64,000 nucleotides of DNA from an uncultured Planctomycetaceae bacterium (GTDB lineage Bacteria > Planctomycetota > UBA1135 > GCA-002686595), in NCBI GenBank assembly GCA_964591315.1, contig CAZQAT010000001.1, forward strand, positions 81,673 to 145,672, in the 5' to 3' direction. The position numbers and the translations under genes are program-made. Of this stretch, positions 18,248-38,188 are shown one piece after another (positions within the stretch are counted from its first letter, which is position 1; the number at the start of each line of letters is the position of its first letter). Under the pieces are notes generated by a model. It had not been told where the DNA came from. It was given only the letters and a program-made list of their open reading frames with translations, and ran no database searches.

Positions 18248-19659
18248 GCGACCTCCCGGTGGGCCGCGGCTGACCCGCTGCGCCGCTCGAGGTTCGGCTT
18301 GACCTCGAACATGGCGATCATGGGCACGTAGCGGCAGAAGAGCAGGAAGAGGGTGAAGAACAGGCCGAAGCCTCCCACCAGGGAGCCGACCTCGATCCAG
18401 GTGGGCACGTAGCCCGACCAGCTCGAGGGCAGGAAGTCCCGGTGCAGGGAGGTCACGATGATCACGAAGCGCTCGAACCACATGCCCACGTTGACCACCA
18501 GCGAGAGCAGGAAGAGGAGCAAGAGGTTGTTGCGCACCTTGCGGAACCACAGCAGCTGGGGCGAGATCACGTTGCAGGTCACCATGATCCAGAAGGACCA
18601 GGCCATCGGGCCGCGCATGCGGTTGAGGAAGACGAACTGCTCGTACTTGCTCTGGGAGTACCAGGCCACGAAGAACTCGGTCAGGTAGGCCAGGGCCACG
18701 ATGCTGCCGGTGAACACGAGCACCTTGCAGATGGCGTGGATGTGGCGCATCGTGATGTAGTCCTCGAAGCGCATGGTCTTGCGCGCCACGAGCATCAAGG
18801 TCAACACCATCGCGAAGCCCGAGAAGACGGCCCCGATCACGAAGTAGGGCGGGAAGACCGTCGTGTGCCACCCCGGGATGACCGAGGTGGCGAAGTCGGA
18901 GCTCACGACGCTGTGCACGGAGACCACCAGAGGCGTGGCCAGGGCCGCCAGCAGCACGCAGGCCGCCTCGTAGCGCGACCAGGTGCGGGCGGTGCCGCGC
19001 CAGCCGAGGCTGAGCAGGCTGAAGATCTTCTTGCGGAACCCCTTGGCCCGGTCGCGCACCGTGGCCAGGTCCGGGATCATGCCCACGTACCAGAACACCA
19101 ACGAGATCGTGAAGTAGGTCCCGATGGCGAAGACGTCCCACAGGAGCGCCGAGCGGAAGTTGACCCACAGGGGCCCGCGGAAGTTCGGGTAGGGGAAGAC
19201 CCAGTAGGCCAGCCACGGTCGCCCCATGTGGATCACCGGGTACAGGCCGGCGCAGATCACCGCGAAGATCGTCATCGCCTCCGCGGAGCGGTTGATCGAG
19301 GTGCGCCACTTCTGGCGGAACAGCAGCAGGACCGCGGAGATCAGGGTCCCCGCGTGGCCGATCCCGACCCAGAAGACGAAGTTCGTGATGTCGAACCCCC
19401 AGCCGACCGTGCGGTTGAGGCCCCAGGTGCCGATGCCGTTGGCGACCTGGTAGCCGACCGCGAGGACGCCCAGGAGCAGGGCCGAGAGGGCGGCCAGGAA
19501 GCCCGCGTACCACAGGCCCGTGGGCTTGCCCTCCAGGGGCCCGCACACGTCGCGCGTCATGTCCCCGGCGCTCTTTCCGCCGGTGATCAGCGGCGGCTCG
19601 TCCGGGGGCGCTGCAAGGGGCGGGGCGAGGGGCGCCGCCAGGTGCTGCTCAACCGTCAT
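18244..19659 (-). CDS. actC: Alternative Complex III quinol-interacting membrane subunit ActC (NrfD/PsrC family)
   Basis: A 471-aa polytopic NrfD-like protein that overlaps the actB stop by 11 nt. Confidence 0.9.
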   Translation of the reverse strand: MTVEQHLAAPLAPPLAAPPDEPPLITGGKSAGDMTRDVCGPLEGKPTGLWYAGFLAALSALLLGVLAVGYQVANGIGTWGLNRTVGWGFDITNFVFWVGIGHAGTLISAVLLLFRQKWRTSINRSAEAMTIFAVICAGLYPVIHMGRPWLAYWVFPYPNFRGPLWVNFRSALLWDVFAIGTYFTISLVFWYVGMIPDLATVRDRAKGFRKKIFSLLSLGWRGTARTWSRYEAACVLLAALATPLVVSVHSVVSSDFATSVIPGWHTTVFPPYFVIGAVFSGFAMVLTLMLVARKTMRFEDYITMRHIHAICKVLVFTGSIVALAYLTEFFVAWYSQSKYEQFVFLNRMRGPMAWSFWIMVTCNVISPQLLWFRKVRNNLLLLFLLSLVVNVGMWFERFVIIVTSLHRDFLPSSWSGYVPTWIEVGSLVGGFGLFFTLFLLFCRYVPMIAMFEVKPNLERRSGSAAAHREVA

Positions 19660-22600: not shown

Positions 22601-22669
22601 CTCGCCGGGCAAGAGCAGGGAGGCCTCGGCCGCGCGGAGCTCGGGGGGCAGGGGGTCGTTCGGGCTCAC
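19649..22669 (-). CDS. actB: Alternative Complex III subunit ActB (molybdopterin-oxidoreductase-like domain fused to a 4Fe-4S ferredoxin domain)
   Basis: I placed the GTG start just after the actA stop. The Tat signal is SRRAFLRLTGFGLTAG. The C-terminal Fe-S motifs are CIGCSACAVGC, CQQCDHAPC and CVGTRYCANTCP. Confidence 0.9.
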   Translation of the reverse strand: MSPNDPLPPELRAAEASLLLPGEDTDVSRRAFLRLTGFGLTAGALSSCSRAPLRHVVPNLLAPVGTVAGRAYWLATTCAGCSAACGVLAKCRDGRPIKLEGNETHALSRGGLCAVGQAEVLSLYDSRRFTAPQRATDSGGFEATTWSEADAFVAARLDAARASGGAVRLLTGSLHGPAQQAALEAFLEVNPNARHVAYDALSVSALLDAHGLTRGVRALPSFRFDKAEVIASFEADFLGTWISPVAFAAAYAEGRRPDREEGWMSRHVQLEARVSLTGTVADRRLRVAPDDVPAQLFALCRALETRAGAGGRLDGEVEAAPWVEELADELWRARGQALVVCGQNDLQAQLHTAYANELLGAYGRTLSVARPSNQMRGDDRALANLRAELEAGSVELLITSGVNPAYDLPPDVVTAIERAGTHVAHAASLDETVGLADLVLPRPHALEAWGDGEPEVGRWSLTQPALPALRQTRSLARLLASWIGDAREDYDLLRDAWRAHVHPRVAAGEDFQAFFDRALHDGFVQEARQPAEPAFDGAALGAAPTGAAAGGLTLVLHANLAQLDGRHAHNPWLQELPDPITKVTWDNWASLSPARAEQLGLEDGDLVRLVAAEGGPELVLPTLVQRGQHDDVVAVALGYGRIGTDRFAKVGPQWLEGQPTIERGETIGANAALLSELRDGALRHQRGGLRVEAAGGRVDLASTQDHHSLEVPPHVAPEGGEVRNAVRAATFADFQHDPEHALAHGHHLPEAELWPDDHANDGPRWGMSVDLTRCIGCSACAVGCQAENNVPVVGKDEVLRHREMSWMRIDRYFTGGEDDLGAAHQPMFCQQCDHAPCEAVCPVLATVHSTDGLNQQVYNRCVGTRYCANTCPYKVRRFNWFDYPHEDELENQALNPDVTVRTRGVMEKCSFCAQRIQEARSEAVRKGVPLADGDIRVACQQSCPTRAIVFGDLNDPESEVSKLAHRQRSYRVLEELNVKPSVHYLARITNPPSDGHASPEAGHHDG

Positions 22670-22671
22670 GG

Positions 22672-23340
22672 CTACAGGTGGCAGGTGGTGCAGTTGGTGG
22701 AAACGTGGTCCCCGACGCGCTCGCCCTCGAGCGACGCCTCGCCGTGGACGGAGACCCGCCGGGTGCGGTGGCAGTCGATGCACCAGCCCATGCTCAGGCT
22801 CTCCTCCTGGCGCATGCGGTCCATGCTGCGCACGGGGCCGTGGCAGGACTCGCAGGCCACGTCCCGGGCCACGTGCACCCGGTGGTCGAAGTAGACGAAG
22901 TCCGCCATGTCGTGCACGCGCACCCACTCGATGGGGCGCGGCTCGGCGTCCGGACGGGGGTTCAGCTCCTCGTCCAGGCCCAGGGCGTCGTAGAGCTTGC
23001 GCAGCTCCGCCGACTCGATCCGCGCGGGCTCGCGGCCCTCCGCCTCGGCCCGGTCGCGCTCCTCGAGCACCGCGTCGAAGCCGGCGGTGACCGTCTTGTG
23101 GCAGTTCATGCAGAGATCCGCCGGAGGGACCCCCGCGTGGCGGCTGGAGCGGGCGCCGTAGTGGCAGTACAGGCAGTCCATCCCCAGCTCTCCCGCGTGC
23201 AGGCGGTGGGAGAACTCGATCGGCTGCACCGGCGCGTAGCCCTGGTGGTTGCCCGGCAGGCGGACCTCGCTGGTCAGGGCGACCACGACCAGGCCGAGCA
23301 GCAGGCTGCAGAGGCCGAAGATCACGTGGTTCATCGACAT
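22672..23340 (-). CDS. actA: Alternative Complex III pentaheme cytochrome c subunit ActA
   Basis: An N-terminal TM anchor followed by five CXXCH motifs (CLYCH, CMNCH, CESCH, CIDCH, CTTCH). Confidence 0.9.
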   Translation of the reverse strand: MSMNHVIFGLCSLLLGLVVVALTSEVRLPGNHQGYAPVQPIEFSHRLHAGELGMDCLYCHYGARSSRHAGVPPADLCMNCHKTVTAGFDAVLEERDRAEAEGREPARIESAELRKLYDALGLDEELNPRPDAEPRPIEWVRVHDMADFVYFDHRVHVARDVACESCHGPVRSMDRMRQEESLSMGWCIDCHRTRRVSVHGEASLEGERVGDHVSTNCTTCHL

Positions 23341-23352
23341 GGGCGCGTCACC

Positions 23353-24960
23353 TCAGGGGTTCTTGTGATCGGCCTTCGGGCCGAGGTAGTACCACCAGTT
23401 CAGGACCACGCAGACCGCGTAGAAGGCGGCCAGCCCGTACATGGCGTACTCGGGCGTCTTGGCCTTCATCTGCTCGCCGATCAGCTTCGGGATCAGGAAG
23501 GCGCCGTAGGCGGCCACGGCCGAGGTCCAGCCGAGCACCGGGCCCGCCTGCTCCTTGTCGAAGACGATCGAGATCGTGCGGAAGGTCGACCCGTTGCCCA
23601 CGCCGGTGGCGGCGAAGAGGATCACGATCAGCACGAAGAAGGGCATGAAGAACTCCTCCGGCGTCGCGGACTGGTAGGCCTGGGCGGAGTAGTAGCCCAC
23701 ACCGATGGCCGAGAGGGTCATCACGATCGCCACCACCTGGGTCACGATGGCGCCGCCCACCTTGTCGGAGATCATCCCCCCGATGGGCCGGATCAGGGCC
23801 CCGACGAAGGCGCCCACCCAGACGAACATGAAGGTGGCGGGGGCCTCGGGGTTGGGCGTGGTGTGGGTCATCACGCCGTCGACCTCGATGTGCTGGAAGC
23901 CGAAGATGAACTTGATCGCGAGGCCGACCGCGGCGGAGAACCCGATGAACGACCCGAAGGTCATCGTGTAGATGATCGTCATCACCCACGTGTGCTTGTT
24001 GCCGAAGATCTTGTACTGCCGCTCCAGGTTGCCCTTGATCTCCCCGGGGGAGAGGGCCTTCATCAGGACCACGGTCAGGGCGATCACGGCCGGCAGCACG
24101 ATCCACTTGACCCAGGTCAGCTCGGGGAACTGCAGGATCACATAGAGCCCGGCGCCGGCCGTGGCGAAGCCGATCAAGAGCAGCCACGAGATTCGCCCGA
24201 AGCACACCAGCGGGTTCTTGATGTTGGGCGTGACGTGCTCGGTGGTGATGTTGTTCAGCCGCGTCCAGCCCAGGATGGCCAGGGGGATGAGCCAGTACAT
24301 CCACACGAAGCCGGCGCTCGAGAGCCAGGTGTCCGAGCCGGCCTCGATGCGCTTGAAGATCGTGCCGCTCTTCGACGCCAGGGTCATCGGGTCGCCGCTC
24401 AGGGGGCCCACGATGGCTGCCGTCATCCCGAGCGGGATCAGGATCTGCATCGTCGTGACCCCGAAGTTCCCCAGCCCCGCGTTCATCCCGAGCGCGTAGC
24501 CCTGGACCTTCTTGGGGTAGAAGAAGCTGATGTTGGACATCGACGAGGCGAAGTTCCCGCCGCCGATGCCCGACAGGAAGGCCAGGGCCTGGAACACCCA
24601 CAGGGGCGTGTTCCTGTCCTGCAGGGTGATGGCCGCCCCGAGGGCGGGGATCATAAGCAGGGCCGTCGTGAAGACGATCGTGTTGCGCCCCCCGGCGAGC
24701 CGGATGAAGAAGGTGCTGGGGATGCGCAGGGTCGCGCCGGTCAGGCCCGCGATGGCGGTCAGGGTGAAGAGCTCCGACTGGGTGAAGTCGAAGCCCAGGT
24801 TCTTCATCTGGACCGTGATGATCCCCCACATCAGCCAGACGGCGAAGCCGCACAGGAGGCTGGGGATCGAGATCCACAGGTTTCGGTTGGCGATCTTCTT
24901 GCCGGTGGAGTCCCAGAACGTCTCGTCCTCGGGGTTCCAGGTCTTCAGGTCAGCACTCAT
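23353..24960 (-). CDS. narK: MFS nitrate/nitrite transporter NarK
   Basis: I placed the start at MSADLKTWNPEDETFWD. NarK signatures are GFAVWLMW, LTGATLRIP and FLSGIGGGNFASSM. The gene ends only 12 nt before the actA start. Confidence 0.9.
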   Translation of the reverse strand: MSADLKTWNPEDETFWDSTGKKIANRNLWISIPSLLCGFAVWLMWGIITVQMKNLGFDFTQSELFTLTAIAGLTGATLRIPSTFFIRLAGGRNTIVFTTALLMIPALGAAITLQDRNTPLWVFQALAFLSGIGGGNFASSMSNISFFYPKKVQGYALGMNAGLGNFGVTTMQILIPLGMTAAIVGPLSGDPMTLASKSGTIFKRIEAGSDTWLSSAGFVWMYWLIPLAILGWTRLNNITTEHVTPNIKNPLVCFGRISWLLLIGFATAGAGLYVILQFPELTWVKWIVLPAVIALTVVLMKALSPGEIKGNLERQYKIFGNKHTWVMTIIYTMTFGSFIGFSAAVGLAIKFIFGFQHIEVDGVMTHTTPNPEAPATFMFVWVGAFVGALIRPIGGMISDKVGGAIVTQVVAIVMTLSAIGVGYYSAQAYQSATPEEFFMPFFVLIVILFAATGVGNGSTFRTISIVFDKEQAGPVLGWTSAVAAYGAFLIPKLIGEQMKAKTPEYAMYGLAAFYAVCVVLNWWYYLGPKADHKNP

Positions 24961-25001
24961 GGCGCGGTGGGGAGGGAGGGCGTGGTGGTTCCGCGGGAGG
25001 G

Positions 25002-25691
25002 TCAGGAGGACTTCCGGATGCGCTTGCGGTCCCAGTTCCAGACGACGACCTGGGTCTTGCGCCACAGGTAGGGGTTGGGCACGACGAGGACGTGCACCAG
25101 CCGCGTGAACGGGAACACGAGGATGATCAGCCAGGCATTGATGATGTGCGCCTTCACGAGCCACGGCATGGGCGCGATGTAGGACACGTCAGGGTTGAAC
25201 TTCACCAGGGACCAGAGCCAGGGCGTCATGTTCGTTGCGAACCAGGAGCTGCCCCAGCTGTGCTGGATGGAGATCGCTATGCCGGTCACGACCTGGACCA
25301 GCAGGCCGCCGTAGATGAACCAGTCCCCGGGGGTGGTCACCCGGCGCGCCTTGCTGAAGCGGAAGCGCCGGATGACGATGTTCACCAGGCCCGCCAGGGT
25401 GAGCACGGCCACGGCCAGGCCAGTGACCTCCAGCAGCACCAGCCGGAAGGTGGAGGCGTTCCAGCTCAGCAGGGTCTCGGGCAGGAGGAAGGCGAAGATG
25501 TGCCCGGCCAGCACGGTCAGGATCCCGTAGTGGAAGGGGACCGAGGCCCAGAAGTGCTGCTGGTTCTCCAGGAACTGCGAGGACAGGCTCGAGTAGGAGA
25601 AGGAGGCCATCCGGTAGCGCCGAATCGTGACCAGGAAGAACACGACCAGGGAGACGTAGGGCAGGACGCCGAACCAGAGGTAGTCGTTCAT
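25002..25691 (-). CDS. narI: Respiratory nitrate reductase gamma subunit NarI (dihaem b, quinol-oxidising)
   Basis: The 229-aa protein begins MNDYLWFGVLPYVSLVVFFLVTIRRY and contains FHYGILTVLAGH. It follows narJ with a 4-nt overlap. Confidence 0.9.
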   Translation of the reverse strand: MNDYLWFGVLPYVSLVVFFLVTIRRYRMASFSYSSLSSQFLENQQHFWASVPFHYGILTVLAGHIFAFLLPETLLSWNASTFRLVLLEVTGLAVAVLTLAGLVNIVIRRFRFSKARRVTTPGDWFIYGGLLVQVVTGIAISIQHSWGSSWFATNMTPWLWSLVKFNPDVSYIAPMPWLVKAHIINAWLIILVFPFTRLVHVLVVPNPYLWRKTQVVVWNWDRKRIRKSS

Positions 25692-26269
25692 CGCTCGAGC
25701 TCGCTCGGGGCGCCCCCGGCGGGGGCGGCCTCTTCGGAGGGGGTGGAGTGGGCGCCGTCGACGAAGCGTTTCAGACCGCGCAGGACGCCGTAGTAGGGGT
25801 TGTCCTGGTCCCCGAATCCTTCGAGGACCTTGGCCAGGGCCGGGGAGACGACGCCGGAGGCGATCGCTCGGGCTGTGCCCGCGTCGGCACGCGCGAGCAC
25901 CAGGAGCACGTGGGAGATGTGGTCGGGTAGCTCGGCGTTCTCGGTCACGTCGTGCCGCCTCAGGAGGTCGCGCATGCGGACCATGAAGGCGCCGCGGGCG
26001 TAGCTCTCGCCGTACAGGTGCCAGCCCACCTCGAGGGCGCGCTCGGCGTTGGAGTCGAAGGTCCTGGTGAACACCTCCTCCAGGGCGCTGGGGCCGTTCT
26101 CCTGCAGGTACTCGAGCAGGGGCAGCAGGTCCGGACCACGCTCAGGGGCCTGCTCGAGGACCAGTCCGACGTGCTCGGAGAGGGCCGGGTCTTCCCCGCG
26201 GCCGGGGTAGCGCAGGAGCTCCGCCCAGGCGGCGTAGCAAGTGGCGTGGTCGGGCTCGACGCGCACCAT
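25688..26269 (-). CDS. narJ: Nitrate reductase molybdenum cofactor assembly chaperone NarJ
   Basis: A 193-aa acidic helical protein in the position between narH and narI. Confidence 0.8.
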   Translation of the reverse strand: MVRVEPDHATCYAAWAELLRYPGRGEDPALSEHVGLVLEQAPERGPDLLPLLEYLQENGPSALEEVFTRTFDSNAERALEVGWHLYGESYARGAFMVRMRDLLRRHDVTENAELPDHISHVLLVLARADAGTARAIASGVVSPALAKVLEGFGDQDNPYYGVLRGLKRFVDGAHSTPSEEAAPAGGAPSELER

Positions 26270-26272
26270 GGC

Positions 26273-27760
26273 TCAGCTCCGCTTGGGGGCCACACGCTCG
26301 CCGAAGCCCGCGTTGGAGCGGTGCTCGTGGGGGTCCTCGAGCATCTCGATCGCCATCTCGCGCTGGAAGGGCGGGACGACGAAGCGGTCCTCGAAGGTGG
26401 CCAGCGCCGACAGCTTGTAGATGTCCGTGGCCTCCTCCGCGGTCAGGTCGGCCTCCATCAGGGAGCGCTGGGCCTTCTCCTCGTCGATGTCACCGACGGT
26501 GACGTGCCGACGCCAGACCCGCACGGCGAGCTGCTTGCGCAGGGCGTAGCGCAGCTTGCCCAGGTTGCCGCCGGTGAACATGCTGCCCAGGTACTCCATC
26601 GGGGCCCGGGCCTTGTCGATGTCGGCGAAGAGCTCGTCCAGGTCGTTCTTGACCACGTCGCCCTGGGTCATCGACATGACCGGCAGGAGCGGCGGCACGT
26701 AGAAGAGCATCGGGAAGGTGCGGTACTCCACGTGCATCGGGAGAGCGATCTTCCAGTCCTTGACGTACTTGTAGACCGGCGACTTGCGGGCGCTGGCGAT
26801 CACGCCCTCCGGCACTCCGTTGCGCCGCGCCTCCCGGATGACCTGGGGGTCGTGGGGGTCGAGGATCATCTCGCGCTGGGCGTCCACGAGCTCCTCGTCC
26901 TTGAGGAGCGCCATCTCGTGGATCTTGTCCGCGTCGTAGAGCAGGTTGCCCAGGTAGCGGATGCGGCCCACGCAGGAGTGGAAGCAGGCCGGGGCCTGGC
27001 CCGACTCGAGGCGCGGGAAGCAGAGGATGCACTTCTCCGACTTGCCGGTGGACCAGTTGTAGTAGGTCTTCTTGTAGGGGCAGGCCGGGATGCAGGCGCG
27101 CCAGGCGCGGCAGACGTCCTGGTTGACGAGCACGATGCCGTCCTCCCCGCGCTTGTGGAGGGCGCCCGAGGGGCAGGCAGCCACGCAGGCCGGGTTGAGG
27201 CAGTGGTTGCAGATGCGCGGGGCGTAGAAGAACGCGATGCGCTCGATGGCAAGCATCTGCTCGCGCTGCTCGGCGGACAGCCCGTCCATGTTCGGGTCGT
27301 TCTTCGCGTAGACCTGCGAGCCCCCGAGGTCGTCGTCCCAGTTCGGGCCGGACTCCACGTCGATGTGCTCGCCGGTGATCATGGACACGGGCCGCGCCGT
27401 GGGCTGGTCGTCGCCCTCGGGGGCGTTGAACAGGTCCTCGTAGCGGTACGTCCAGGGCTCGTAGTAGTCGTCCATCGACGGCTGAGCCGGGTTGTGGAAG
27501 ATGTTCGGCACGAGCTTGGCCTTGCTCGTCGAGCGCAGCTCGAGCTGCTTGCCGTCGGTCTTCCAGCCGCCCTTGTAGGCATCCTGGTCCTCCCACTTCG
27601 TGGGGTAGCCGGTGCCGGGCTTGGTCTCGACGTTGTTCCACCACATGTAGTCCGTGCCTTCGCGGTCGGTCCACACGTTCTTGCAGGCGATGCTGCAGGT
27701 GTGGCAACCGATGCACTTGTCGAGGTGGAAGACCATCGACACTTGTGAGCGAACGTCCAT
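26273..27760 (-). CDS. narH: Respiratory nitrate reductase beta subunit NarH
   Basis: The N-terminus MDVRSQVSMVFHLDKCIGCHTCSIACKNVW is almost identical in pattern to enterobacterial NarH. Further Fe-S motifs are CNHCLNPACVAACP and CRAWRACIPACP. Confidence 0.95.
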   Translation of the reverse strand: MDVRSQVSMVFHLDKCIGCHTCSIACKNVWTDREGTDYMWWNNVETKPGTGYPTKWEDQDAYKGGWKTDGKQLELRSTSKAKLVPNIFHNPAQPSMDDYYEPWTYRYEDLFNAPEGDDQPTARPVSMITGEHIDVESGPNWDDDLGGSQVYAKNDPNMDGLSAEQREQMLAIERIAFFYAPRICNHCLNPACVAACPSGALHKRGEDGIVLVNQDVCRAWRACIPACPYKKTYYNWSTGKSEKCILCFPRLESGQAPACFHSCVGRIRYLGNLLYDADKIHEMALLKDEELVDAQREMILDPHDPQVIREARRNGVPEGVIASARKSPVYKYVKDWKIALPMHVEYRTFPMLFYVPPLLPVMSMTQGDVVKNDLDELFADIDKARAPMEYLGSMFTGGNLGKLRYALRKQLAVRVWRRHVTVGDIDEEKAQRSLMEADLTAEEATDIYKLSALATFEDRFVVPPFQREMAIEMLEDPHEHRSNAGFGERVAPKRS

Positions 27761-27783
27761 GGATCAGGTCCTTCTGGCTGGGG

Positions 27784-30700
27784 TTACCAGGTGAGCTTGG
27801 GGAGCTTGCGCACGAGGATGTGCGTGTCGCGGTTGCAGCCCGTGGGCCCCCAGTAGTTGAAGTGGTAGGTGAACTGCGCGTAGCCGCCGAGCATCAGGTT
27901 CGGCTTGAGGCGCGTTCGCACGAGGCTGTTGTGGCCGCCGGCGCGTCGGTTGCCCCTGAGGGGTGACTTCGGCACGGAGTAGGTGCGCTCCGGCGAGTGG
28001 TAGATGATGCAGATGCCGCGCGGGATCCTCGCGCTGACCGCGGCCCGCGTAACGACGACGCCGTGGTCGTTGTGGACCTCGACCCAGTCGTTGTCGACGA
28101 CCCCGATCTCCTCCGCGTCCTGGGGGTTGCACCAGAAGGGCTCGACGCCGCGCGAGAGGGTCGACATGCGCTGGTTGTCCCCGTACGTGGAGTGGATGTG
28201 CCACTTCCCGTGGGGGGTCAGGTAGTTCAGCATCAGCGTGCGGCCCTCCTGCTTGCTGAAGTTCAGGTCCGCGTACTGGTGCGGCTGAGGCTTCGGCTTG
28301 TAGGTGGGCAGGTGCTCGCCGAACTGGATGTAGCCCGGGTGGTCCAGGTAGAGGTGCTGGCGCCCGGTCAGGGTGCGCCAGGGCACCATGCGCTCGCGGT
28401 TGTAGGTGAAGGGCGCGTAGGGGCGGCCCTTGTCGCACAGGCCGGACCACATGGGGCTGTTGAGCAGGCGCCGCGGCTGGGCCTGAATGTCGGCGAAGCT
28501 CGTCCGCACGTCGCGGGTGTTCGCGGCCAGGTCGACCAGGGGCATGCCGGTCTTCTTCTCCATGCCCTCGTACGAGCGGTAGGCGAGCTCGCCATTCGTC
28601 ACCGTCGCGAAGCGCAGCACGATGTTGGCGGCGTCCTCCGCTTCCCGCAGGGAGGGGTAGGTGGTGTCGCCCCAGTGCTCCACCGGCGCCGTGGCCAGGG
28701 CCTCGTCGTAGAAGTCCTCGACCTCGTAGTGGGTGCCGTGGGCTCCTAGGCCGTTCTTGCGGACGTCTCGCCCGTAGGAGCAGAACTGCTTGTAGAGGTT
28801 CGGGTAGTCGCGCTCGACGACCTTGAAGCCCGGCATGGTCTTGCCCGGGATTGCCTCGCACTCACCATCGATCCAGCTCTCGATGCGCGGCTGGGCGATC
28901 TCGGCCGGGGAGTCGTGGGCCAGGGGCACGGCGACCACGTCCTTGGTCTTTCCGGGCAGGTGCTTCTCAGCCAGCTCGCTGAAGCGCTGCGAGATCTCGG
29001 CGAAGATGTCCCAGTCGCTCTTCGACTCCCAGCAGGGCGGCACGGCCGCCGAGAGGGGGTGGATGAACGAGTGCATGTCGGTCGAATTGAGGTCGCTCTT
29101 CTCGTACCAGGTGGCCGCCGGCAGGATGATGTCGGAGTACAGGGCCGTGGTGTCCATGCGGAAGTTGAGGTCCACCACCAGGTCCATCTTTCCGGCGGGG
29201 CCCTCCTCGACCCACTCGACGTCCTTCACGGAGTCCTGGGCCATGTCCTCGTTGATCTGGTTCGTGTGCGTCCCGAGGTAGTGGTGCAGGAAGTACTCGT
29301 GCCCCTTGGCGGAGGACATCAGGGCGTTGCCGCGCCAGATCCACCACAGCCGTGGCCAGCACTCCTCGGCGTCCGGACGCTCGATGGCGAACTTCAGGTC
29401 GCGCTTCTTGAGGCGCTCGACCAGGTGCTCGGGGACGTCCTTGCCGGCCTCCTCGGCCTGCTTGACGAGCTCGAGGGGGTTCTCGTCGAACTGGGGGTAG
29501 AACGGCAGCCAGCCGTTGCGCACCGCCCGCACGTTCGAGTCGATCGTGTGCTCGTCGACGATGTTCTTCTCGGGCTGGTCAGCGGGCACCGTGTGGTAGT
29601 CCCGGAAGCTCTTCTCGTAGCGCCACTGGTCCGAGTGCACGTAGTGCCAGCTCGGGCCGTTCTGGAGGCGCGAGGGTCCGTACCAGTCCTTCGAGAGGGC
29701 CACGCTGGCCCAGGACTCCATGGGCGCGAGCTTCTCCTGGCCGACGTAGTGGGCGAGGCCGCCGCCGTTGGTGCCCACGCAGCCGCAGAACACCAGGGCC
29801 TGGATGGCGGCCCGGTACATCAGGTTGGCGTGGTACCAGTGGTTGACGCCGGCGCCGATGATGACCGTGCACTTGCCCTCGGTCTTCTGGGCCGTCACGG
29901 CCCACTCGCGGGCGAAGCGGATCAGGGTGTCGCGGGAGATGCCCGTGTAGCGCTCGGCCCAGGCGGGGGTGTAGACCGTGTCGTCGTCGTAGCTCTCGGG
30001 GTAGTCGCCCTCGAGGCCGCGGCCGACGCCGTAGGTGGCCATCAAGAGGTCGAAGACCGTCGCCACGCGCACCGGACCGTCGGCGGTCTCGATCGTCCGC
30101 ACCGGGACGCCCCGGTGTGTGGTTCCGCCGGCGGCGAAGTCGTCGAAGGCGACCTGGAGCACCCCGTCGTTCTGGTCCAGGAAGGTCAGCTCCGGGTCGA
30201 TGGCGCTTCCGTCGACGCCGTCCTTCAGCTCGAGGTTCCACTTGCCCTGGGCCTCGCCCCAGCGGTGGCCGACGCTGCCCAGGGGCATCTTCGCCCGGCC
30301 GTCGCCGGCGTCCCACATGAGGAACTTCCAGTCCCCGTTCTCCTCGCCGTCGTAGCCCTCCACGCGGCCCGCCCGCAGGAGCTGCCCGGCCTTCCAGCCG
30401 TCGCCCGCCGGCTCGAGCTCGACCAGGAAGGGCGAGTCCGAGAACTGCTTCAGGTAGTCGAGGAAGAAGGGCGTCTTCTCCCCGTGGTGGAACTCGTTCA
30501 GGATCACGTGGTTGACGGCCATCCACCAGGCGCCGTCCTGCCCCGCGTTGAGGGAGATCCACTCGTCCGCGTACTTCGCGACCTGGTTGAAGTCCGGCGC
30601 GAAGACCACCATCTTCGACCCGTTCTGGCGCGCCTCGGCGGCGAAGTGCACGTCCGGGGTGCGGGTCATGTTCAGGTTGGCCCCCATGACCGCCAGGAAC

Positions 30701-31407
30701 TTGGCGTTGAACCAGTCCGCGGACTCGTTCACGTCCGTCTGCTCGCCCCAGGTCTCCGGGGAGGCGTTGGGCAGGTCGCAGTACCAGTCGTAGAAGGACA
30801 GGTTGACCCCGCCCATCAGCTGCAGCATGCGCGAGCCCGCCGCGTAGGAGAGCATCGACATGGCCGGGATGGGGGAGAAGCCGGTGATCCGGTCCGGGCC
30901 GTGGGCCTGGATGGTGTGCACCGCCGCGGCGGCCTGGATGTCGAGCACCGTGTCCCAGTCGGTGCGCCGCAGGCCGCCCTTGCCCCGGGCGCGCTGGTAG
31001 CGGGCGCGCTTCTCCGGGTCGTTCATCAGGCTGCGCCAGGCCTCGACCGGGTCGTCGTGGCGGGCACTCGCCTCACGCCACAGGTCGAGCAGCGCCCCGC
31101 GGATCATCGGGTACTTCACCCGCAGGGGGCTGTAGAGGTACCAGGAGTAGGAGATGCCGCGCTGGCAGCCGCGGGGCTCGTAGGGCGGGATGCCCTCCTG
31201 GATCGACGGGTAGTCCAGGGCTTGCATCTCCCAGGCGACGATCCCGTCCTTGACGTGGATGTTCCAGGAGCACGAGCCCGTGCAGTTCACGCCGTGGGTG
31301 CTGCGCACGACCCGGTCGTGCTGCCAGCGGTTGCGGTAGAACTCCTCCCACTTGCGGTTGGAGGGGTCGACGCGGTCGAGGATGAAGGGGTTCTTACCTT
31401 GGTCCAT
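27784..31407 (-). CDS. narG: Respiratory nitrate reductase alpha subunit NarG (cytoplasm-facing nNar type)
   Basis: The N-terminal signature is [35 protein letters not shown] (FS0 cluster). The protein is 1207 aa and has no functional twin-arginine signal. Confidence 0.95.
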
Positions 31408-31423
31408 GAGGCTCGTAGCAGGC

Positions 31424-32278
31424 TCAGCGTTGGGCGAGGAGGGCGCGGCGCACGGTGCGGAAGCGGCGGCGCCAGAGGACGTCGAAGAGCACCATCAGCA
31501 GGGCCGCCATCAGGATCCCGGCCAGCACGAACTCGAGGGCCGTGGTGGGGGCCTCCACCTGCCCGCTCTCGGCCTCGCGCTGCAGGTAGGCGACCAGGGC
31601 CAGGACCTCTTCGGAGTCCATGGGGCTGTCCGAGAACAGGGGCTGCATCACCACCGAGGGCGGGGAGCTGAGCCAGGCACCGAGGGCCTTGCGCCCCTCG
31701 AGGCGCGAGTAGGCGCCGGTCAGGTCGGGACCCAGGCGCCCGCCGCCGAGACCGTCGAGGCCGCCGACCGCGTGGCAGGAGATGCAGGCCGGGCCGCCGG
31801 CCTCGAACTGCTCCTGGCCGGTGAAGAGCGCCCGTCCGCGGGCCACGTCGACCTCGGTCAGGGGGCGGTCGCTGAGCTGCACGCCGGCGAAGCGCGAGGT
31901 CTCGAGGGCCGACTCGGCGTCGATCAGGTCGAGCAGCTTGCCCGCCAGCTCTCGGTCGCCGGCCAGGGGCGACATGACGGCCCCGTTCGCGTCGGCCAGG
32001 AGCTTCAGGGCGTAGGGATCGCCGCTGTCGATGACTCCCTGGGGATCGAGCATGAAGTCGACCAACCACGCGCGCTCCTGGCGGGTGGAGACGTCCTTCA
32101 GGTCCGGCCCGCTCAGGGCGCCGCCTCCGATCGTGTGGCAGCTCGAGCAGCTGGTCTTGAAGAACTTGATCGACTCCTCGGAGGGCGGGTCCTGGGCCGC
32201 GAGGGGCGCGGCGGTCAAGAGGACCGCGGAGAGGAGCGTGGGGAGGGGCGGTATTCGGAGTCCAGACACGGGGTGCAC
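31424..32278 (-). CDS. Membrane-anchored periplasmic dihaem cytochrome c, first gene of the nar operon (NarC-like architecture)
   Basis: GTG start. The signal peptide is [18 protein letters not shown]. There are two CXXCH motifs (CSSCH, CISCH) and a C-terminal TM segment, [20 protein letters not shown]. The stop lies 16 nt before the narG start. Confidence 0.75.
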
Positions 32279-32310: not shown

Positions 32311-32327
32311 GTGCAAGGGGTGTGCCG
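32311..32327 (-). promoter_or_regulatory. Sigma-54 (-24/-12) promoter upstream of the narC-like gene
   Basis: The minus strand reads cGGCACaccccTTGCAc, with GG and GC in exact consensus spacing (TGGCAC-N5-TTGCW). The -12 element ends 34 nt before the GTG start. Confidence 0.6.
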
Positions 32328-32367: not shown

Positions 32368-32408
32368 CTGCATACGCCCGTATGCAGCGGGCCGCGTGCC
32401 GTATGCAC
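32368..32408. promoter_or_regulatory. Candidate enhancer (UAS): perfect palindrome CTGCATAC-GCCC-GTATGCAG plus an extra GTATGCAC half-site
   Basis: Read directly. The palindrome centre is about 50 bp upstream of the -24 element. The same TGCATA(S)-N4-(S)TATGCA architecture recurs at 36181-36198. Confidence 0.5.
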
Positions 32409-32436: not shown

Positions 32437-33861
32437 CTAGCGGAACCTGCCCGGGTCGATCCCGAGCTGGCGCAGGATGCGCTGCAGGGCCGCGCGGGTC
32501 ATTCCGCAGCGCTGGGCCGCCTGGGAGACGTTGCCCCCGGTGCCCTCGAGGGCCCGCTGCACGAACTCCCGCTGGAAGGCCTCCACCGCCTGCTTCTTGC
32601 CCTGCGCGTAGTCGGTCACGTCCTGCGCGCCGCGCGCCGGCCCGGCCTGGCTCCAGCCCTGGGGGCTGAGCCCCAGGTGGTGGGGCAGGAGCTTCTGCCC
32701 ACCGCAGACCACCAGGGCCCGCACCATCGCGTTCTGCAGCTCGCGCACGTTCCCGGGCCAGGGGTGGTCCCGCAGGGCGTCGGTGGCGCTGGCGCTCAGC
32801 TGCGGGGACTCCGCGCCGGGGCCGAGGCAGGTGGCCGCGGCGTCGGAGAGGAAGCGCAGGGCCAGGGGCAAGACGTCCAGGGGCCGCTCGCGCAGGGGCG
32901 GCAGGTGAATGCGCACGACGCTGATCCGGTAGAAGAGGTCCTCGCGGAACTCGCCGCTCGCGATGCGCGCCTCCAGGTCGCGGTTCGTGGCGCACACCAG
33001 GCGAAAGTCGACGGGCACGTCCCGGTCGCCGCCCACCGGGCGTACGACCTTCTCCTCGAGCACCCGCAGGAGCTTGCCCTGGAAGCCGGCGGACATGGAG
33101 CACAGCTCGTCGAGGAAGACCGTGCCGCCCTGGGCCTGCTCGAACAGGCCGGGGTGGTCCCGGTCCGCGCCGGTGAAGGCGCCCTTGCGGTGCCCGAAGA
33201 GCTCGGACTCGAGCAGGGAGTCGGAGAGGGCCGCGGCGTTGACCGCCAGGAAGGGGCGCTCGGGGTGACCGCTGCGCGCGTGGATGGCCGAGGCCACCAC
33301 CTCCTTGCCCGTGCCGCTCTCGCCCTCGACCAGGACCGGGACCGGGCCCGCGGCCACGCGCTCGACGAGCTGCATGACCCGCTGCATGGCCGGGTCCTCC
33401 GCCACCAGCTCGGGCCGCTCGGCGTCCGGGTCCTGGGTCTGGCGCGCAGCAAGGAGCTGGCGCCCGAGCCGCTCGACCAGGGACAGCACCTCGCGGTTCT
33501 CGAAGGGCTTGGTCATGAAGTGCGCGGCCCCGTTCTGCAGGCAGGAGACCGCGGTCTGGATCGTGCCGAAGCCGGTCAGCACCACCACCTCGACCTCCGG
33601 CGCGCGCTCCTTGACCGCCGGCAAGAGCTCGGTGCCGGTCATACGCGGCATCATCAGGTCCGTCAGCACCAGGTCCGGCTGGAAGCGGTCGAGGACCTCG
33701 AGGGCCTCGAGGCCGTCGGCGGCGGTGGCGACCCTTGCGCCGAGGGTGCCGATCAGCTTCTCCAGCCCGCGGCGGATGTCCGTCTCGTCGTCGACCACCA
33801 GCACGCGCAGGCCGGTGATGGGGGGGGAGCTCACGGAGGTCTTCGGGACCGTCTGGGTCAT
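32437..33861 (-). CDS. Sigma-54-dependent response regulator (NtrC family: REC + AAA+ + Fis-type HTH)
   Basis: REC domain: VLVVDDETDIRRGL...LVLTDLMMP. Walker A: GESGTGKEV. Sigma-54 contact loop: GAFTGA. Also present are FLDEL, NVRELQN, and the C-terminal HTH NVSQAAQRCGMTRAALQRILRQLG. Confidence 0.9.
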   Translation of the reverse strand: MTQTVPKTSVSSPPITGLRVLVVDDETDIRRGLEKLIGTLGARVATAADGLEALEVLDRFQPDLVLTDLMMPRMTGTELLPAVKERAPEVEVVVLTGFGTIQTAVSCLQNGAAHFMTKPFENREVLSLVERLGRQLLAARQTQDPDAERPELVAEDPAMQRVMQLVERVAAGPVPVLVEGESGTGKEVVASAIHARSGHPERPFLAVNAAALSDSLLESELFGHRKGAFTGADRDHPGLFEQAQGGTVFLDELCSMSAGFQGKLLRVLEEKVVRPVGGDRDVPVDFRLVCATNRDLEARIASGEFREDLFYRISVVRIHLPPLRERPLDVLPLALRFLSDAAATCLGPGAESPQLSASATDALRDHPWPGNVRELQNAMVRALVVCGGQKLLPHHLGLSPQGWSQAGPARGAQDVTDYAQGKKQAVEAFQREFVQRALEGTGGNVSQAAQRCGMTRAALQRILRQLGIDPGRFR

Positions 33862-36116
33862 GGGGTGGTGGGGAGCGCCGTGGATTCGTGGACGGGGGCC
33901 GTGTCGAGCAGCAGCCGCACCCGGAAGTGGCTGCCGCGGGGGGAGCTGTCCAGGAGCTGGAGGGTGCCCCCGTGCATCTCGGTGATGCGCCGCGCAGTGG
34001 GGAGGCCGAGGCCGGTGCCCTCGCCGCGCTCCTTGGTGGAGTAGAAGGGGCGGAAGATCTTCTGGCGCGCCTCCTCGGGGATGCCGGCGCCGGTGTCGTG
34101 GATGTCGACCACCGCATAGCCCTCCTCGGCGCGGGTCGCCACGCGCACCTCGCCGCCGTCGGCGCCGATGGCCTGGATGGCGTTCACCAGGAGGTTGACG
34201 AAGACCTGCCGGAGCTGGATCTCGTCCATGTTGACCTCCAGGGACCGCTCGGCGAGGTCGAGCTCGATGCGGACGTTCGAGCGCTCCCGCAGGAGGCGCA
34301 GGAAGCCCGTCACGTCCTCGACGGTCGTGTTGACGTCCACCGCCCCCAGGTCCGGGGTCTGGTTGTTCGAGTAGTCGAGCAGGTCGCGGATCGTGCGCTT
34401 GCAGGACTCCACGTTGCGCTGGATGACCTCCACGTTCTCCTGCAGCCCCGGGTGTTGTGGGAGCTCGGTGGCCAGCATCTGGTTGTAGAGGCTGATGGCC
34501 GCCAGGGGGTTGTTGAGCTCGTGGGCCATGACCGCCGCCACCTCGCCCAGCACCGCCAGGCGCTCCTGGTGGATCTGGCGCTCGTCCTGGGTGATCCGGT
34601 CGCCGATGTCGCGGCTGACCAGCACGCGACCCGAGAGGCCGCGGGCGTCCGGGGCCAGGCGCGTGGCGTGGATCTCGAAGACGCCGCCTCCGATCTCGAC
34701 CACGCAGGAGCGCGAGCCGACGTCCGGCGAGAAGAGGCAGGTGCGGCAGGCGGTGCGCTCCTCCTCCGCGTTGGCGCAGGTGTGGTGGGAGGTCAGCTCC
34801 ACGCGCTCCGTGCGCAGGGCCTCGAGCAGGGGCTCGGCGGCGTCGTTGTGGACCACGAGCTGACCCTCGGGGTCGAGCACCACCAGCCCGTCGCGCATGG
34901 AGGAGATCACCTTGCGCAGGCGGTCGCGCTCGAAGGCCAGGGCCTCCTGGCCCTCGCGCAGGGCGTCGGCCGTGCTCTCCAGGTGGTGGGTGCGCTGCTC
35001 GATGGCGCCCGCCATCATGTTGAAGGCCGAGGCCAGCTCGCCGAACTCGTCCTTCTGGTCGAGCTCCACCCGCACCTCCAGGTCGCCCCCCGCCAGCCGC
35101 CGGGCCGCGCTCGCCAGGTGTTGCAGGGGCCGGGTCAGGAAGCTCATCGGCAGCAGGAACAGCACGCAGGCGACCACGCTCAAGATGGCCCCGAAGCCCA
35201 TGAAGCGGCTCTGCAGGCCGGCCACCGCGGCGCGGATGCCCTCGCCCGGCAGCGCCACGTGCACGGCCCAGCCCGCGGCGGGCATGGGAAAGCTGTGGTG
35301 CAGGGCGTCCGCGCTGTCCTGGCTGCCCTGGGCGTTCACCAGCCGCAGGCCGAAACCGGAGCGCACCAGCTCCGAGTCCGGGCCCGGTCCGTGGCTCGTG
35401 GTCAGATCGGGATGCACGGCCAGGCGCTGGCCCCCGGCGTCCTGCAGCTCGAGCCCCGGGCGGCCGCTGGAGGCCTCGGAGTCGAAGCCGCTGGTCTGCA
35501 GGGCCCCGACGATCCAGACCCCGGGGTGCACCCAGGCGATCAACTGGCCCAGCGGCTGGCGCCCCTCCCGGCTGTGGAGAGGGGTGCCGAGGGCGATGCG
35601 CGGGTGGGGGGCCTCCTCCCCGGCGGGGATCCAGTTGGAGAACCAGGGGGAGCCCTCGCGGTGCGGGCCCCGGGGGAGGTCGGCGGGGGAGGACCCGGTG
35701 GTGTGCACCAGGGCACCGTCCGGCCCGACGATCGCCAGGTCCATGAAGGCCGGCTCGATCGAGAGCTTGTTCTGGACGAGGTGCTGCTGCAGCTCCCCCT
35801 CGAGCACCGCGCGCACCCGGTCGCCCTCCAGGAGGGCCTCCGCGTGGTCGCGGATGAAGCCGTCGGAGGCGAAGTCCTGCAGGCGCGAGCCCAGGAGGTC
35901 CAGCCGCCCGTCGAGGGCGGTGGCGTAGGCCCGGGCCTGGAACTCGAGCCGGCCGCCGACCTCCAGCTCGAGGGCCTCCTTGGCGGAGGCCGACACGAAG
36001 TACCCCCCGACCCCGAAGGTCGCCACGCAGACGCTGACGAACATCAGCGCCAGCTTGCTGCGGAGGGTCATTCCACGCATGGGGATCATCTTATCGTCTT
36101 GCTGGTGGAGGGGCAC
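33858..36116 (-). CDS. Membrane sensor histidine kinase (periplasmic domain, HAMP, PAS-like segment with four Cys, HisKA/HATPase)
   Basis: There are two TM segments and the HAMP sequence PLQHLASAARRLAGGDLEVRV...EFGELASAFNMM. H-box: MAHELNNPLAAI. N/G boxes: NLLVNAIQA, DTGAGIPEE, GTGLGLP. The stop overlaps the regulator start (ATGA). The exact start is uncertain: GTG at 36116, or ATGs at 36089, 36080 or 36071. Confidence 0.85.
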   Translation of the reverse strand: MPLHQQDDKMIPMRGMTLRSKLALMFVSVCVATFGVGGYFVSASAKEALELEVGGRLEFQARAYATALDGRLDLLGSRLQDFASDGFIRDHAEALLEGDRVRAVLEGELQQHLVQNKLSIEPAFMDLAIVGPDGALVHTTGSSPADLPRGPHREGSPWFSNWIPAGEEAPHPRIALGTPLHSREGRQPLGQLIAWVHPGVWIVGALQTSGFDSEASSGRPGLELQDAGGQRLAVHPDLTTSHGPGPDSELVRSGFGLRLVNAQGSQDSADALHHSFPMPAAGWAVHVALPGEGIRAAVAGLQSRFMGFGAILSVVACVLFLLPMSFLTRPLQHLASAARRLAGGDLEVRVELDQKDEFGELASAFNMMAGAIEQRTHHLESTADALREGQEALAFERDRLRKVISSMRDGLVVLDPEGQLVVHNDAAEPLLEALRTERVELTSHHTCANAEEERTACRTCLFSPDVGSRSCVVEIGGGVFEIHATRLAPDARGLSGRVLVSRDIGDRITQDERQIHQERLAVLGEVAAVMAHELNNPLAAISLYNQMLATELPQHPGLQENVEVIQRNVESCKRTIRDLLDYSNNQTPDLGAVDVNTTVEDVTGFLRLLRERSNVRIELDLAERSLEVNMDEIQLRQVFVNLLVNAIQAIGADGGEVRVATRAEEGYAVVDIHDTGAGIPEEARQKIFRPFYSTKERGEGTGLGLPTARRITEMHGGTLQLLDSSPRGSHFRVRLLLDTAPVHESTALPTTP

Positions 36117-36169
36117 CTGCAGGCGGACGGATCCCGGCAGGCAGAGCGAGGTTCCCCTCTGCCGCCCCC

Positions 36170-36198
36170 GCTATGCGGGGTGCATAGCGGGCTATGCA
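36170..36198. promoter_or_regulatory. Candidate enhancer (UAS): GCTATGC-GGGGT-GCATAGC overlapping TGCATAG-CGGG-CTATGCA
   Basis: Read directly. There are three TGCATA-type half-sites about 60 bp upstream of the sigma-54 promoter at 36250-36266. Confidence 0.5.
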
Positions 36199-36249
36199 GC
36201 CGGCGGCCCCGCGCCGCCCGTGTCGGGGCCAGGGAGGGGGGCGGCGGCG

Positions 36250-36266
36250 CGGCACAGGGCTTGCGT
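36250..36266 (+). promoter_or_regulatory. Sigma-54 (-24/-12) promoter upstream of the narK-DoxX fusion gene
   Basis: The sequence is cGGCACagggcTTGCgt with consensus GG/GC spacing. It lies 46 nt upstream of the ATG at 36311, which has a GGAGA Shine-Dalgarno. Confidence 0.6.
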
Positions 36267-36310
36267 ACCAGCGGCGAGTCGCCCCTTCACCCCTCCCGGA
36301 GACACCGTCC

Positions 36311-38101
36311 ATGGAAGTCCAGAACAAGGCCACGCGCATCGAGCTCTTCAGCCTGCGGACCCCGCAGATGCGGGCCTTCCACATGTCGTGGTTCTCCTTC
36401 TTCCTCTGCTTCTTCGCCTGGTTCGGCATCGCCCCCTTGATGCTGGTCGTCAAGGAGGAGCTCGGGCTGACGAAGGCCCAGGTCGGGAACACGATCATCG
36501 CCTCGGTGGCGATCACGATCCTGGCGCGCTTCGTGATCGGGGCCCTGTGCGACCGGGTCGGACCACGCAAGAGCTACACCTTCCTGATGGTCCTGGGGTC
36601 GATCCCGGTGATGTGCATCGGGCTGGCGGACAGCTACACCACCTTCCTCTTGTTCCGGCTCGGGATCGGGGTGATCGGTGCCTCCTTCGTCATCACCCAG
36701 TACCACACCTCGGTGATGTTCGCCCCCAACTGCGTGGGGACGGCCAACGCCACCAGCGCGGGCTGGGGAAACCTGGGTGGGGGGGTGACCCAGATGGTCA
36801 TGCCGCTCGTGTTCGCTGGCTTCCTCGGGCTGGGCTTCGACGAGAGCGCGAGCTGGCGGCTGGCGATGGTGGTCGCAGGCGCGGTCTGCTTCCTGGTGGG
36901 CATCGCCTACTACTTCTTCACCCAGGACCTGCCCGACGGCAACTTCAAGGACCTGCGGGCCCAGGGCAGGCTCACGGCCAAGGAGAAGTCCAACGGGACC
37001 TTCTGGCTGGCGGCCCGGGACAAGCGGGTCTGGGCCCTGTTCCTGATCTACGGCGCCTGCTTCGGCATCGAGCTGACGATCAACAACATCGCCGCGATCT
37101 ACTACGCCGAGAAGTTCGAGCTGGGGCTGAAGTCCGCCGGGCTCGTGGCCGGCCTCTTCGGCCTGATGAACATCTTCGCCCGCACCACGGGGGGCATCAT
37201 CGGGGACAAGTTCGGCCAACGGGGGGGCCTCAAGGGCCGCGTGCGCTGGCTGTTCATCGCGGTCTTCGTCGAGGGCATCGCCCTGATCCTCTTCTCGCGC
37301 ATGGACGTCCTGCCCGTGGCGATCGGCACGATGATCGTGTTCAGCCTCTTCGTGCAGATGTCCGAGGGGGCCACCTACTCGGTGGTGCCCTTCGTCAACA
37401 AGAAGGCCCTGGGCTCGATCTCGGGCATCGTCGGCGCCGGCGGCAACATGGGCGCCGTGGCGGCGGGCTTCCTGCTGCGGGCCGAGGGGCTGACCTACTC
37501 AACGGCGCTCATGATCCTGGGCTGCATCGTGCTGCTGTTCTCCTTCGCGACCTTCCTGGTGCGCTTCAGCGCCGAGGACGAGGAGGCGGCCGCCGCGGAG
37601 CACGCCAAGGCCCTCGAGGAGCGGGCGCGCACGCGCAAGAAGCCGCGCTTCGAGCTGCCCCGGCCGCGGCCGACCCGCCGCCGCCTGACGCCCATGACCG
37701 TCCTGCGGGTCTACCTGGGTGTGGCGCTCATGATCAAGGGCATCTACTACATCACCAACATGGGCGACCTCGAGGCCCAGCTCGGCGAGAACTTCGGGGA
37801 GACCCAGAACGTGATCGCCTGGTTCGTGGTCTTCGCCCACGCGGTGGGGGGCGCGAGCCTGGCCCTGGGCTTCGCCACCCGCTGGGTCTCGGCCCTCAAC
37901 GCAGTCGTCCTGGCGGGGGCCACGGTGCTGCACCTGGTGGGCTCGGAGCTGATGATGGTGGAGAACCTCGAGCTCCAGTTCGCGGCCCTGGTGCTGATGA
38001 CCCTGATCGTCTTCACCTGGCAGGGAGCGGGCCGCTTCTCCCTCGACACGCTGGTGTGGGGGGACGAGAACGGACAGGGCGCACCACCGGCGCAGGCCTG
38101 A
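36311..38101 (+). CDS. narK: NarK/NRT2-type MFS nitrate transporter fused in frame to a C-terminal DoxX-like four-TM domain
   Basis: I placed the start at MEVQNKATRIELFS. MFS/NarK motifs are FHMSWFSFFLCFFAWFG and GWGNLGGGVTQ. A basic linker (RKKPRFELPRPRPTRRR) leads into LRVYLGVALMIKG...HAVGGASLALGFATRW...WQGAGRFSLD, typical of the DoxX family. Confidence 0.85.
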   Translation: MEVQNKATRIELFSLRTPQMRAFHMSWFSFFLCFFAWFGIAPLMLVVKEELGLTKAQVGNTIIASVAITILARFVIGALCDRVGPRKSYTFLMVLGSIPVMCIGLADSYTTFLLFRLGIGVIGASFVITQYHTSVMFAPNCVGTANATSAGWGNLGGGVTQMVMPLVFAGFLGLGFDESASWRLAMVVAGAVCFLVGIAYYFFTQDLPDGNFKDLRAQGRLTAKEKSNGTFWLAARDKRVWALFLIYGACFGIELTINNIAAIYYAEKFELGLKSAGLVAGLFGLMNIFARTTGGIIGDKFGQRGGLKGRVRWLFIAVFVEGIALILFSRMDVLPVAIGTMIVFSLFVQMSEGATYSVVPFVNKKALGSISGIVGAGGNMGAVAAGFLLRAEGLTYSTALMILGCIVLLFSFATFLVRFSAEDEEAAAAEHAKALEERARTRKKPRFELPRPRPTRRRLTPMTVLRVYLGVALMIKGIYYITNMGDLEAQLGENFGETQNVIAWFVVFAHAVGGASLALGFATRWVSALNAVVLAGATVLHLVGSELMMVENLELQFAALVLMTLIVFTWQGAGRFSLDTLVWGDENGQGAPPAQA

Positions 38102-38131
38102 CGGGATCGCGGCCGTCCGGCCCTGGTGGCG

Positions 38132-38151
38132 GGCGGCGGGGAGCCGCCGCC
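38132..38151. terminator. GC hairpin GGCGGCGG-GGAG-CCGCCGCC between convergent genes
   Basis: A perfect 8-bp stem read directly, with no T-tract. Confidence 0.3.
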
Positions 38152-38188
38152 TGCTGCCGCTCCTCGCTCCGTGATCGAGTGAGGGCTG

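Follow-up and report, generated by a model that had tools for sequence, protein, structure and literature searches.

A probable sigma-54 enhancer-promoter of narK-DoxX in the predicted regulon of a neighbouring NtrC-type two-component system in Planctomycetota

The window, meaning the whole stretch of DNA that was analysed, is 64,000 nucleotides long and comes from an uncultured Planctomycetaceae bacterium. Its genome (G000) comprises 4.93 Mb at 70.5% GC in a 95%-complete assembly, and the regulon size given below holds for that assembly. Genes for a sensor kinase and an NtrC-family activator lie between a narC-first nitrate reductase operon and a divergent narK-DoxX gene (Table 1). In the operon, narG is an equivalog match (1502 bits). 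The product of narK-DoxX covers the full length of the TIGR00886 model (311.1 bits, cut-off 311.7), and its C-terminal DoxX domain reaches 40.4 bits (cut-off 23.6). The start codon, ATG 36311, agrees with the N-termini of narK-DoxX orthologues, and as the next gene is convergent, narK-DoxX appears to form a single-gene unit. A 509-aa ORF at 23348-24877 was considered as a gene and rejected, since it has no family matches and lies in the wrong frame; the true gene is a NarK-family MFS gene in the frame 23353-25164, and it is this gene that the off-frame tblastn matches of the ORF in relatives mark.

Table 1. Features of the window around the two putative enhancer-promoter modules.
Feature	Position	Strand	Basis
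narC operon: narC (dihaem cytochrome c), narG, narH, narJ, narI, NarK-family MFS gene, alternative complex III (ACIII) genes actA-F	15973..32278	-	domain and family matches
Second NarK-family MFS gene, between narI and actA	23353 to ~24960	-	TIGR00886 261 bits; NarU-like 270 bits
Putative sister sigma-54 promoter of narC-narGHJI-narK-actABCDEF, cGGCAC-acccc-TTGCa	32312..32327	-	core match
Putative sister enhancer of the narC operon: proximal TGCATAC-GCCC-GTATGCA (32369-32386) and distal site (32390-32407)	32369..32407	.	pattern and matrix matches
NtrC-family response regulator/enhancer-binding protein: REC, AAA+ with GAFTGA, Fis-type HTH	32437..33861	-	PF00072, PF00158, PF02954
Sensor histidine kinase: dCache, HAMP, PAS-like segment with CX9CX2CX10C, HisKA, HATPase	33858..36089	-	domain matches
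Distal degenerate palindrome TGCCGCC-CCCG-CTATGCG	36160..36177	.	same register in G004, G007, G364, G013, G017, G006
Proximal palindrome TGCATAG-CGGG-CTATGCA, putative activator site	36181..36198	.	28.6 bits, top site of the genome; 7/7 narK-DoxX promoters
Putative sigma-54 (-24/-12) promoter of narK-DoxX, cGGCAC-agggc-TTGCg	36250..36265	+	consensus match and orthologue conservation
Ribosome-binding site GGAG	36298..36301	+	9 nt before ATG, read off the sequence
narK-DoxX: probable NarK-family nitrate/nitrite MFS transporter fused to DoxX domain	36311..38101	+	MFS_1 and DoxX domain matches

The kinase is likely to start at ATG 36089, with GTG 36116 as an alternative. The four Cys residues of its PAS-like segment and the His preceding them (window 34704-34778, around HHTCANAEEERTACRTCLFSPDVGSRSC) are kept in 12 of 12 aligned orthologues, a motif that suggests a metal or Fe-S cofactor. 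This conserved segment, taken with the periplasmic dCache domain, points to a signal that is probably redox state, anoxia or oxygen, or nitrate/nitrite as a periplasmic anion, or both. The domains that define NtrC-family bEBPs (REC, AAA+ with GAFTGA, HTH_8) are all present in the activator, and both the GAFTGA and the Walker A motif (GESGTGKE) can be read in its sequence. It scores below every named NCBIfam equivalog cut-off tested (NtrC, AtoC, ZraR, NorR and GlrR). NtrC matches best, with 396.5 bits where the cut-off is 558.6, a shortfall which argues that the activator is not NtrC itself; AtoC is second (362.3 vs 714). For the kinase, the best NCBIfam match is AtoS (227 vs 646). The genome also encodes sigma-54 twice, with two rpoN genes scoring above cut-off for PF04552 (202.9 and 175.5 bits); these are located at C57:27211-27687 and C146:4767-5234.

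An initial annotation had described a sigma-54 core and an 18-bp palindrome in front of narK-DoxX, and both were recovered as described, together with the distance from core to ATG (46 nt). The GG (36251-36252) and GC (36263-36264) of the GGCAC-N5-TTGC core (36251-36264) are separated by exactly 10 nt. Nine of the 11 specified positions of TGGCAC-N5-TTGCW agree, the mismatches being a C for T preceding the GG and a G following the -12 GC. The element lies in non-coding DNA, where codon periodicity is low, and faces the gene start. With transcription taken to begin ~12 nt past the -12 GC (11-13 nt downstream of 36264), the start is predicted near 36275-36277. Tandem palindromes together with a -24/-12 element are found at 7/7 narK-DoxX genes of the family (G000, G004, G006, G007, G013, G017 and G364), and the elements of these orthologous promoters match the consensus at 9-11 of 11 positions. 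The annotated promoter is therefore well supported by its exact GG-N10-GC spacing, the presence of rpoN, its position and its conservation, and narK-DoxX is predicted to be sigma-54 dependent.

It is very improbable that the -24/-12 match is no working promoter, with narK-DoxX being transcribed instead from a sigma-70-type or ECF promoter and the palindrome serving a conventional activator or repressor. The two mismatches to consensus would speak for this, as would the weak significance of the core in the window (2 matches vs 0.52 expected, with 10 of 100 shuffles reaching 2). However, sigma-70 promoter and terminator scans found nothing in 35950-36400 or 38000-38300, and all seven orthologues retain the element between palindrome and start codon despite drift of the surrounding sequence. 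Across the genome, the exact core is three-fold depleted (21 copies vs ~61 expected), and most of the 21 copies lie in non-coding DNA preceding genes, suggesting that the sequence is counter-selected inside genes and away from promoters. The elements of an FNR/NarL-type sigma-70 nar promoter (FNR box, -35/-10) are lacking at narK-DoxX, with no FNR box (TTGAT-N4-ATCAA) in 36090-36310.

Upstream of the putative sigma-54 promoter, the two 18-bp dyads of Table 1 have the arrangement of an enhancer, that is, tandem dyads ~70-200 bp upstream of a -24/-12 element. Their centres are 21 bp apart, at ~86 and ~107 bp before the predicted start, compared with ~76 and ~97 bp at narC. The enhancer is separated from the -24 element by a short, GC-rich spacer of 52 nt in which no site for a bending protein is obvious. 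The half-site GCTATGC (36170-36176), previously reported as a third half-site overlapping the palindrome, does exist, but it adjoins the proximal palindrome with a gap of 3 nt and does not overlap it. It is the right, inner arm of the distal palindrome and is conserved as well as the left arm of the main one, so that it is best read as part of a second dimer site. When the sites of the family are oriented to their promoters, each enhancer is seen to be a tandem pair of 7-4-7 dyads spaced 21 bp from centre to centre (20 bp in two cases), and the distal dyad retains its inner arm at narK promoters and its outer arm at narC promoters. Aligned with MAFFT, six narK promoters have TATGC-N5-GCATAG (36172-36176 plus 36182-36187) as their sole invariant block, while the 4-nt centres, flanks and spacing to the -24 element (41-100 nt) drift freely.

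The narC operon is preceded by a similar module on the opposite side of the two-component genes. Its sigma-54 core, GGCACACCCCTTGC (32313-32326, minus strand), is 34 nt from the gene start, and the outer arm of the distal site, GTATGCA, is at 32401-32407. The narC and narK-DoxX sites are alike in their arms and 7-4-7 geometry and are the only two members of the palindrome family in the genome, in agreement with the earlier assignment to one family. The two-component operon is likewise bracketed as proposed, by enhancer-promoters that both face outward.

Both palindromes are rare. Within the window, the pattern with up to one mismatch has 2 matches and none in 100 shuffles (expected 0.00). With up to two mismatches, TGCATA-N6-TATGCA occurs in the whole genome only at narK-DoxX and narC, where composition predicts 0.017 sites. 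Scored with a weight matrix derived from orthologous sites, the two reach 28.6 and 26.1 bits, and the next-best site of the genome has 13.6 bits. Even the hexamer TGCATA has just 40 genomic copies on both strands, and five of the 30 STATGCA half-sites fall within these two loci. The genome search suggested with the initial annotation, for the palindrome upstream of a sigma-54 core, returned exactly two promoters, and copies elsewhere that have no link to sigma-54 promoters, which would have spoken against the module, do not occur.

This rarity also bears on the idea that the inverted repeats form hairpins in RNA or DNA, as a terminator or processing signal would, or belong to a dispersed repeat family, which is scarcely credible. 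The narC-side palindrome does lie 51 nt past the stop codon of the activator gene, a possible place for a terminator. However, a T-run follows neither repeat, no terminator was called, and the narK-side copy is in a divergent promoter region with no gene upstream of it to terminate. Between genera, the arms are conserved but the 4-nt centre drifts, a pattern of protein recognition and not of base pairing, and there are only 2 copies per genome. A hairpin or terminator function was thus rejected on position and conservation pattern.

To place the window among its relatives, 41 genomes of the family, mostly metagenome-assembled, were compared. Activator orthologues (59-70% identity, with paralogues at 46% or less) are found in 8/41, the window's own genome included, and NarG is present in 8/8 of these vs 3/33 of the others (p = 1.7e-6). 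Five loci have the order kinase-activator, palindrome, -24/-12, narCGHJI, and two have the order narK-DoxX, -24/-12, palindrome, kinase-activator. The sites are not confined to such neighbours: in G004, G006 and G017, narK-DoxX and the regulator are on separate contigs and the sites are still present. Elsewhere in the genomes of G004 and G017, the palindrome occurs solely before narK-DoxX orthologues (77-79% identity) on other contigs, with a 10-of-11 sigma-54 element between palindrome and gene. The G007 narC operon, 45 kb away from the regulator, retains CGCATAGCGGCCTATGCA plus GGAAC-N5-TTGC, with CGCATAGCGGCCTATGCA identical to the 18-mer at narK in the same genome.

The palindrome also tracks the regulator. 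The pattern YGCATA-N6-TATGCR has nine sites in 6/8 genomes with the orthologue, all at narC or narK-DoxX, and a single site in 1/33 genomes without it (Fisher p = 4e-5); the reversed control pattern has 4 matches across the 41 relatives. As the modules persist at unlinked narK-DoxX and narC genes and the palindrome follows the activator orthologue, a regulon acting in trans is supported. The small regulon that had been claimed (nitrate uptake, nitrate reductase and ACIII) is therefore probable, with genome uniqueness, orthologous and unlinked promoters, and co-occurrence with the activator all in agreement. The palindrome is absent from G027 and G018, which have nar genes and no activator orthologue. 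The narC operon of G027 (L097) has a perfect TGGCACATCATTTGCA promoter at 9520-9535 (minus strand) and no TGCAT-N8-ATGCA, and this promoter is presumably served by another activator.

As the region between narK-DoxX and the kinase gene must also hold the promoter of the kinase operon, autoregulation had been suggested. Across 12 orthologous loci, the site follows narK-DoxX and not the kinase gene: 4/4 loci with a divergent narK-DoxX neighbour have a strong palindrome ahead of the kinase gene, compared with 1/8 loci without such a neighbour, where it is weak (13.8 bits). Conserved autoregulation of the kinase operon was thus rejected as unsupported, although the operon may still regulate itself in this genome. 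A scan of 35950-36400 found neither a sigma-70-like nor a sigma-54-like site for the kinase operon. A weak palindrome, TGCGTACGGCGTGATGCA, is at 6748 upstream of the kinase gene in G011 (L024), a locus where a 574-aa opposite-strand ORF (10531-12255, minus) also separates the activator gene from the narC enhancer.

At the level of the phylum, sampled with 401 genomes from 288 genera, activator orthologues are found in 38/401 genomes and 31/288 genera. The activator gene is directly upstream of narC in 34/45 loci, and TGCAT-N8-ATGCA (up to one mismatch) occurs in 19 of the 27 activator-narC spacers of 600 bp or less, at 117 times the background density. The spacers of L061, L063 and L067 have two full palindromes ~68 bp apart, an arrangement that is common outside the family, vs the 21-bp tandem of the window's family. 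Full-length narK-DoxX is found in 21 genomes, and the activator is present in 19 of these vs 19 of the 380 genomes without narK-DoxX (p = 4e-20). The palindrome was not found at NarK genes lacking DoxX in genomes without the activator. In the families f69 and f92, the narCGHJI-narK-actABCDEF cluster ends with narK-DoxX, for the most part without a separate palindrome in front of that gene; co-directional clusters ending in narK-DoxX are seen at L137 (G422), L138 (G118) and L139 (G384). This position is a functional link between the NarK-DoxX fusion and both nitrate reductase and ACIII. Since several other families keep the gene at the cluster end without a palindrome, the separate narK-DoxX promoter appears to be lineage-specific. 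Gene order and sites together suggest one functional unit, held together in f69/f92 by operon membership and in the window's family by duplication of the enhancer-promoter.

The dyads of f69 keep the 7-4-7 geometry with other arms: TGCCAAC-GGGC-GTTGGCA and TGACAAC-GGCT-GTTGGCA, in the activator-narC spacers of L077 (G250) and L070 (G355). The recognition helix of the activator, GNVxxAAxxCG[LM]TRAALQRI, is near-invariant across orthologues, as would be expected with a conserved operator, and the f69 activators with changed arms have TRVALQKI or TRAALQKI in place of TRAALQRI. The joint change of arms and helix, seen at few loci, may reflect co-evolution of operator and protein and fits the activator as the reader of the site.

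These data also bear on whether the palindromes are operators of an unlinked nar-specific factor, for instance Rrf2/NsrR-, Crp/Fnr- or NarL-like, with the activator binding elsewhere or free of any site. The palindromes accompany nar genes wherever they accompany the activator, as would be seen with such a factor, and E. coli NsrR sites contain ATGCAT-like arms. A separate factor is nevertheless disfavoured and improbable. At 76-107 bp ahead of the predicted sigma-54 starts, the sites have the usual position of an enhancer and not of a repressor operator, and their 7-4-7 geometry with TGC...GCA ends resembles that of NtrC-class sites. The palindrome is missing from the nar promoters of both genomes mentioned above that lack the orthologue, and from 32/33 genomes without it in all. 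The region 36090-36310 has no FNR box for a Crp/Fnr-like protein, and the arms change to TGCCAAC-N4-GTTGGCA in f69 where the recognition helix of the activator changes. The presumed reader of the palindromes is therefore the activator encoded at 32437-33861.

Together, 36160-36265 is very probably the enhancer-promoter of narK-DoxX and part of the regulon of the neighbouring kinase and NtrC-type activator. In the proposed mechanism, sigma-54 RNA polymerase would sit on the -24/-12 element as a closed complex, and two activator dimers would occupy the tandem palindromes on one face of the helix. Phosphorylation of the activator by the adjacent kinase would lead the bound dimers to build an AAA+ ring, which would touch sigma-54 via GAFTGA, and ATP hydrolysis would remodel the closed complex and open the promoter. 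The same activator would act at the mirror-image module (32312-32407) before narC-narGHJI-narK-ACIII, so that a single signal would jointly induce nitrate import and exchange, nitrate reduction and the quinol-oxidising complex.

In its mode of action, the module would resemble NtrC (NR-I) at glnAp2 of enteric bacteria and AtoC at atoDAEB. With the first it shares a REC, AAA+ (GAFTGA) and Fis-type HTH activator and tandem dyads ~80-140 bp upstream of GG-N10-GC. The NtrC consensus is TGCACCA-N3-TGGTGCA, with TGCA at both dyad ends as in the window. However, the NtrC operator is 17 bp long vs the 18 bp of TGCATAS-N4-STATGCA, and its targets are in nitrogen assimilation, whereas those predicted here are in respiratory nitrate reduction and transport. 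The kinase also differs from NtrB in being a membrane protein with dCache, HAMP and the four-Cys segment. Classical nar control (FNR with NarXL/NarQP in E. coli, NreABC in Staphylococcus, DnrS/DnrT in Thermus) uses sigma-70 promoters with NarL/FixJ- or Crp-type activators. The output predicted here, coordinated induction of nitrate reductase and a NarK transporter, is that of these systems too, Thermus narCGHJIK shares the narC-first operon, and the four-Cys PAS-like segment recalls NreB, which is an oxygen sensor. Unlike in the classical systems, both promoters described here appear to depend on sigma-54 and an AAA+ activator. No sigma-54/NtrC-type regulator of respiratory nar genes turned up in a literature search, an absence that is no proof. 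The sites of E. coli AtoC have been defined experimentally as two inverted 20-mers, GCTATGCAGAAATTTGCACA and GCTATGCAGAAAATTGCGCA (PMC3118216). They open with GCTATGCAG, a word also found at 36191-36199, possibly by coincidence; the rest of the site and the geometry of AtoS-AtoC/atoDAEB differ from the window, and the target of AtoC is short-chain fatty-acid catabolism.

What is new is the orthologous group of the activator, its predicted operator and its target set in respiratory nitrate reduction, while the mechanism is that of a textbook enhancer-binding-protein/sigma-54 module. A broader reading, held with moderate confidence, is that a dedicated two-component master switch of nitrate respiration, undescribed so far, replaces FNR and NarXL in Planctomycetota. 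It would consist of a membrane kinase (dCache, four-Cys PAS-like) and an NtrC-type sigma-54 activator, with an operator, TGCATAS-N4-STATGCA, that co-evolves with the recognition helix (to TGCCAAC-N4-GTTGGCA in another family) and a regulon assembled through operon fusion or duplicated modules. A whole lineage of mostly uncultured Planctomycetota appears to run nitrate reductase, alternative complex III and NarK-DoxX from sigma-54 promoters under one NtrC-type system. The clean computed operator and the minimal regulon of two promoters make this a testable regulator-operator pair, and operator and regulator could serve in metagenomes as a predictor of nitrate-respiring capacity and its regulation. 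The unstudied NarK-DoxX fusion also gains a functional link to respiratory nitrate reduction. A contig search with the activator agreed with the assignment to this phylum, recovering mostly paralogues (34-45% identity) and one orthologue, at 61% identity, in a Planctomycetota MAG.
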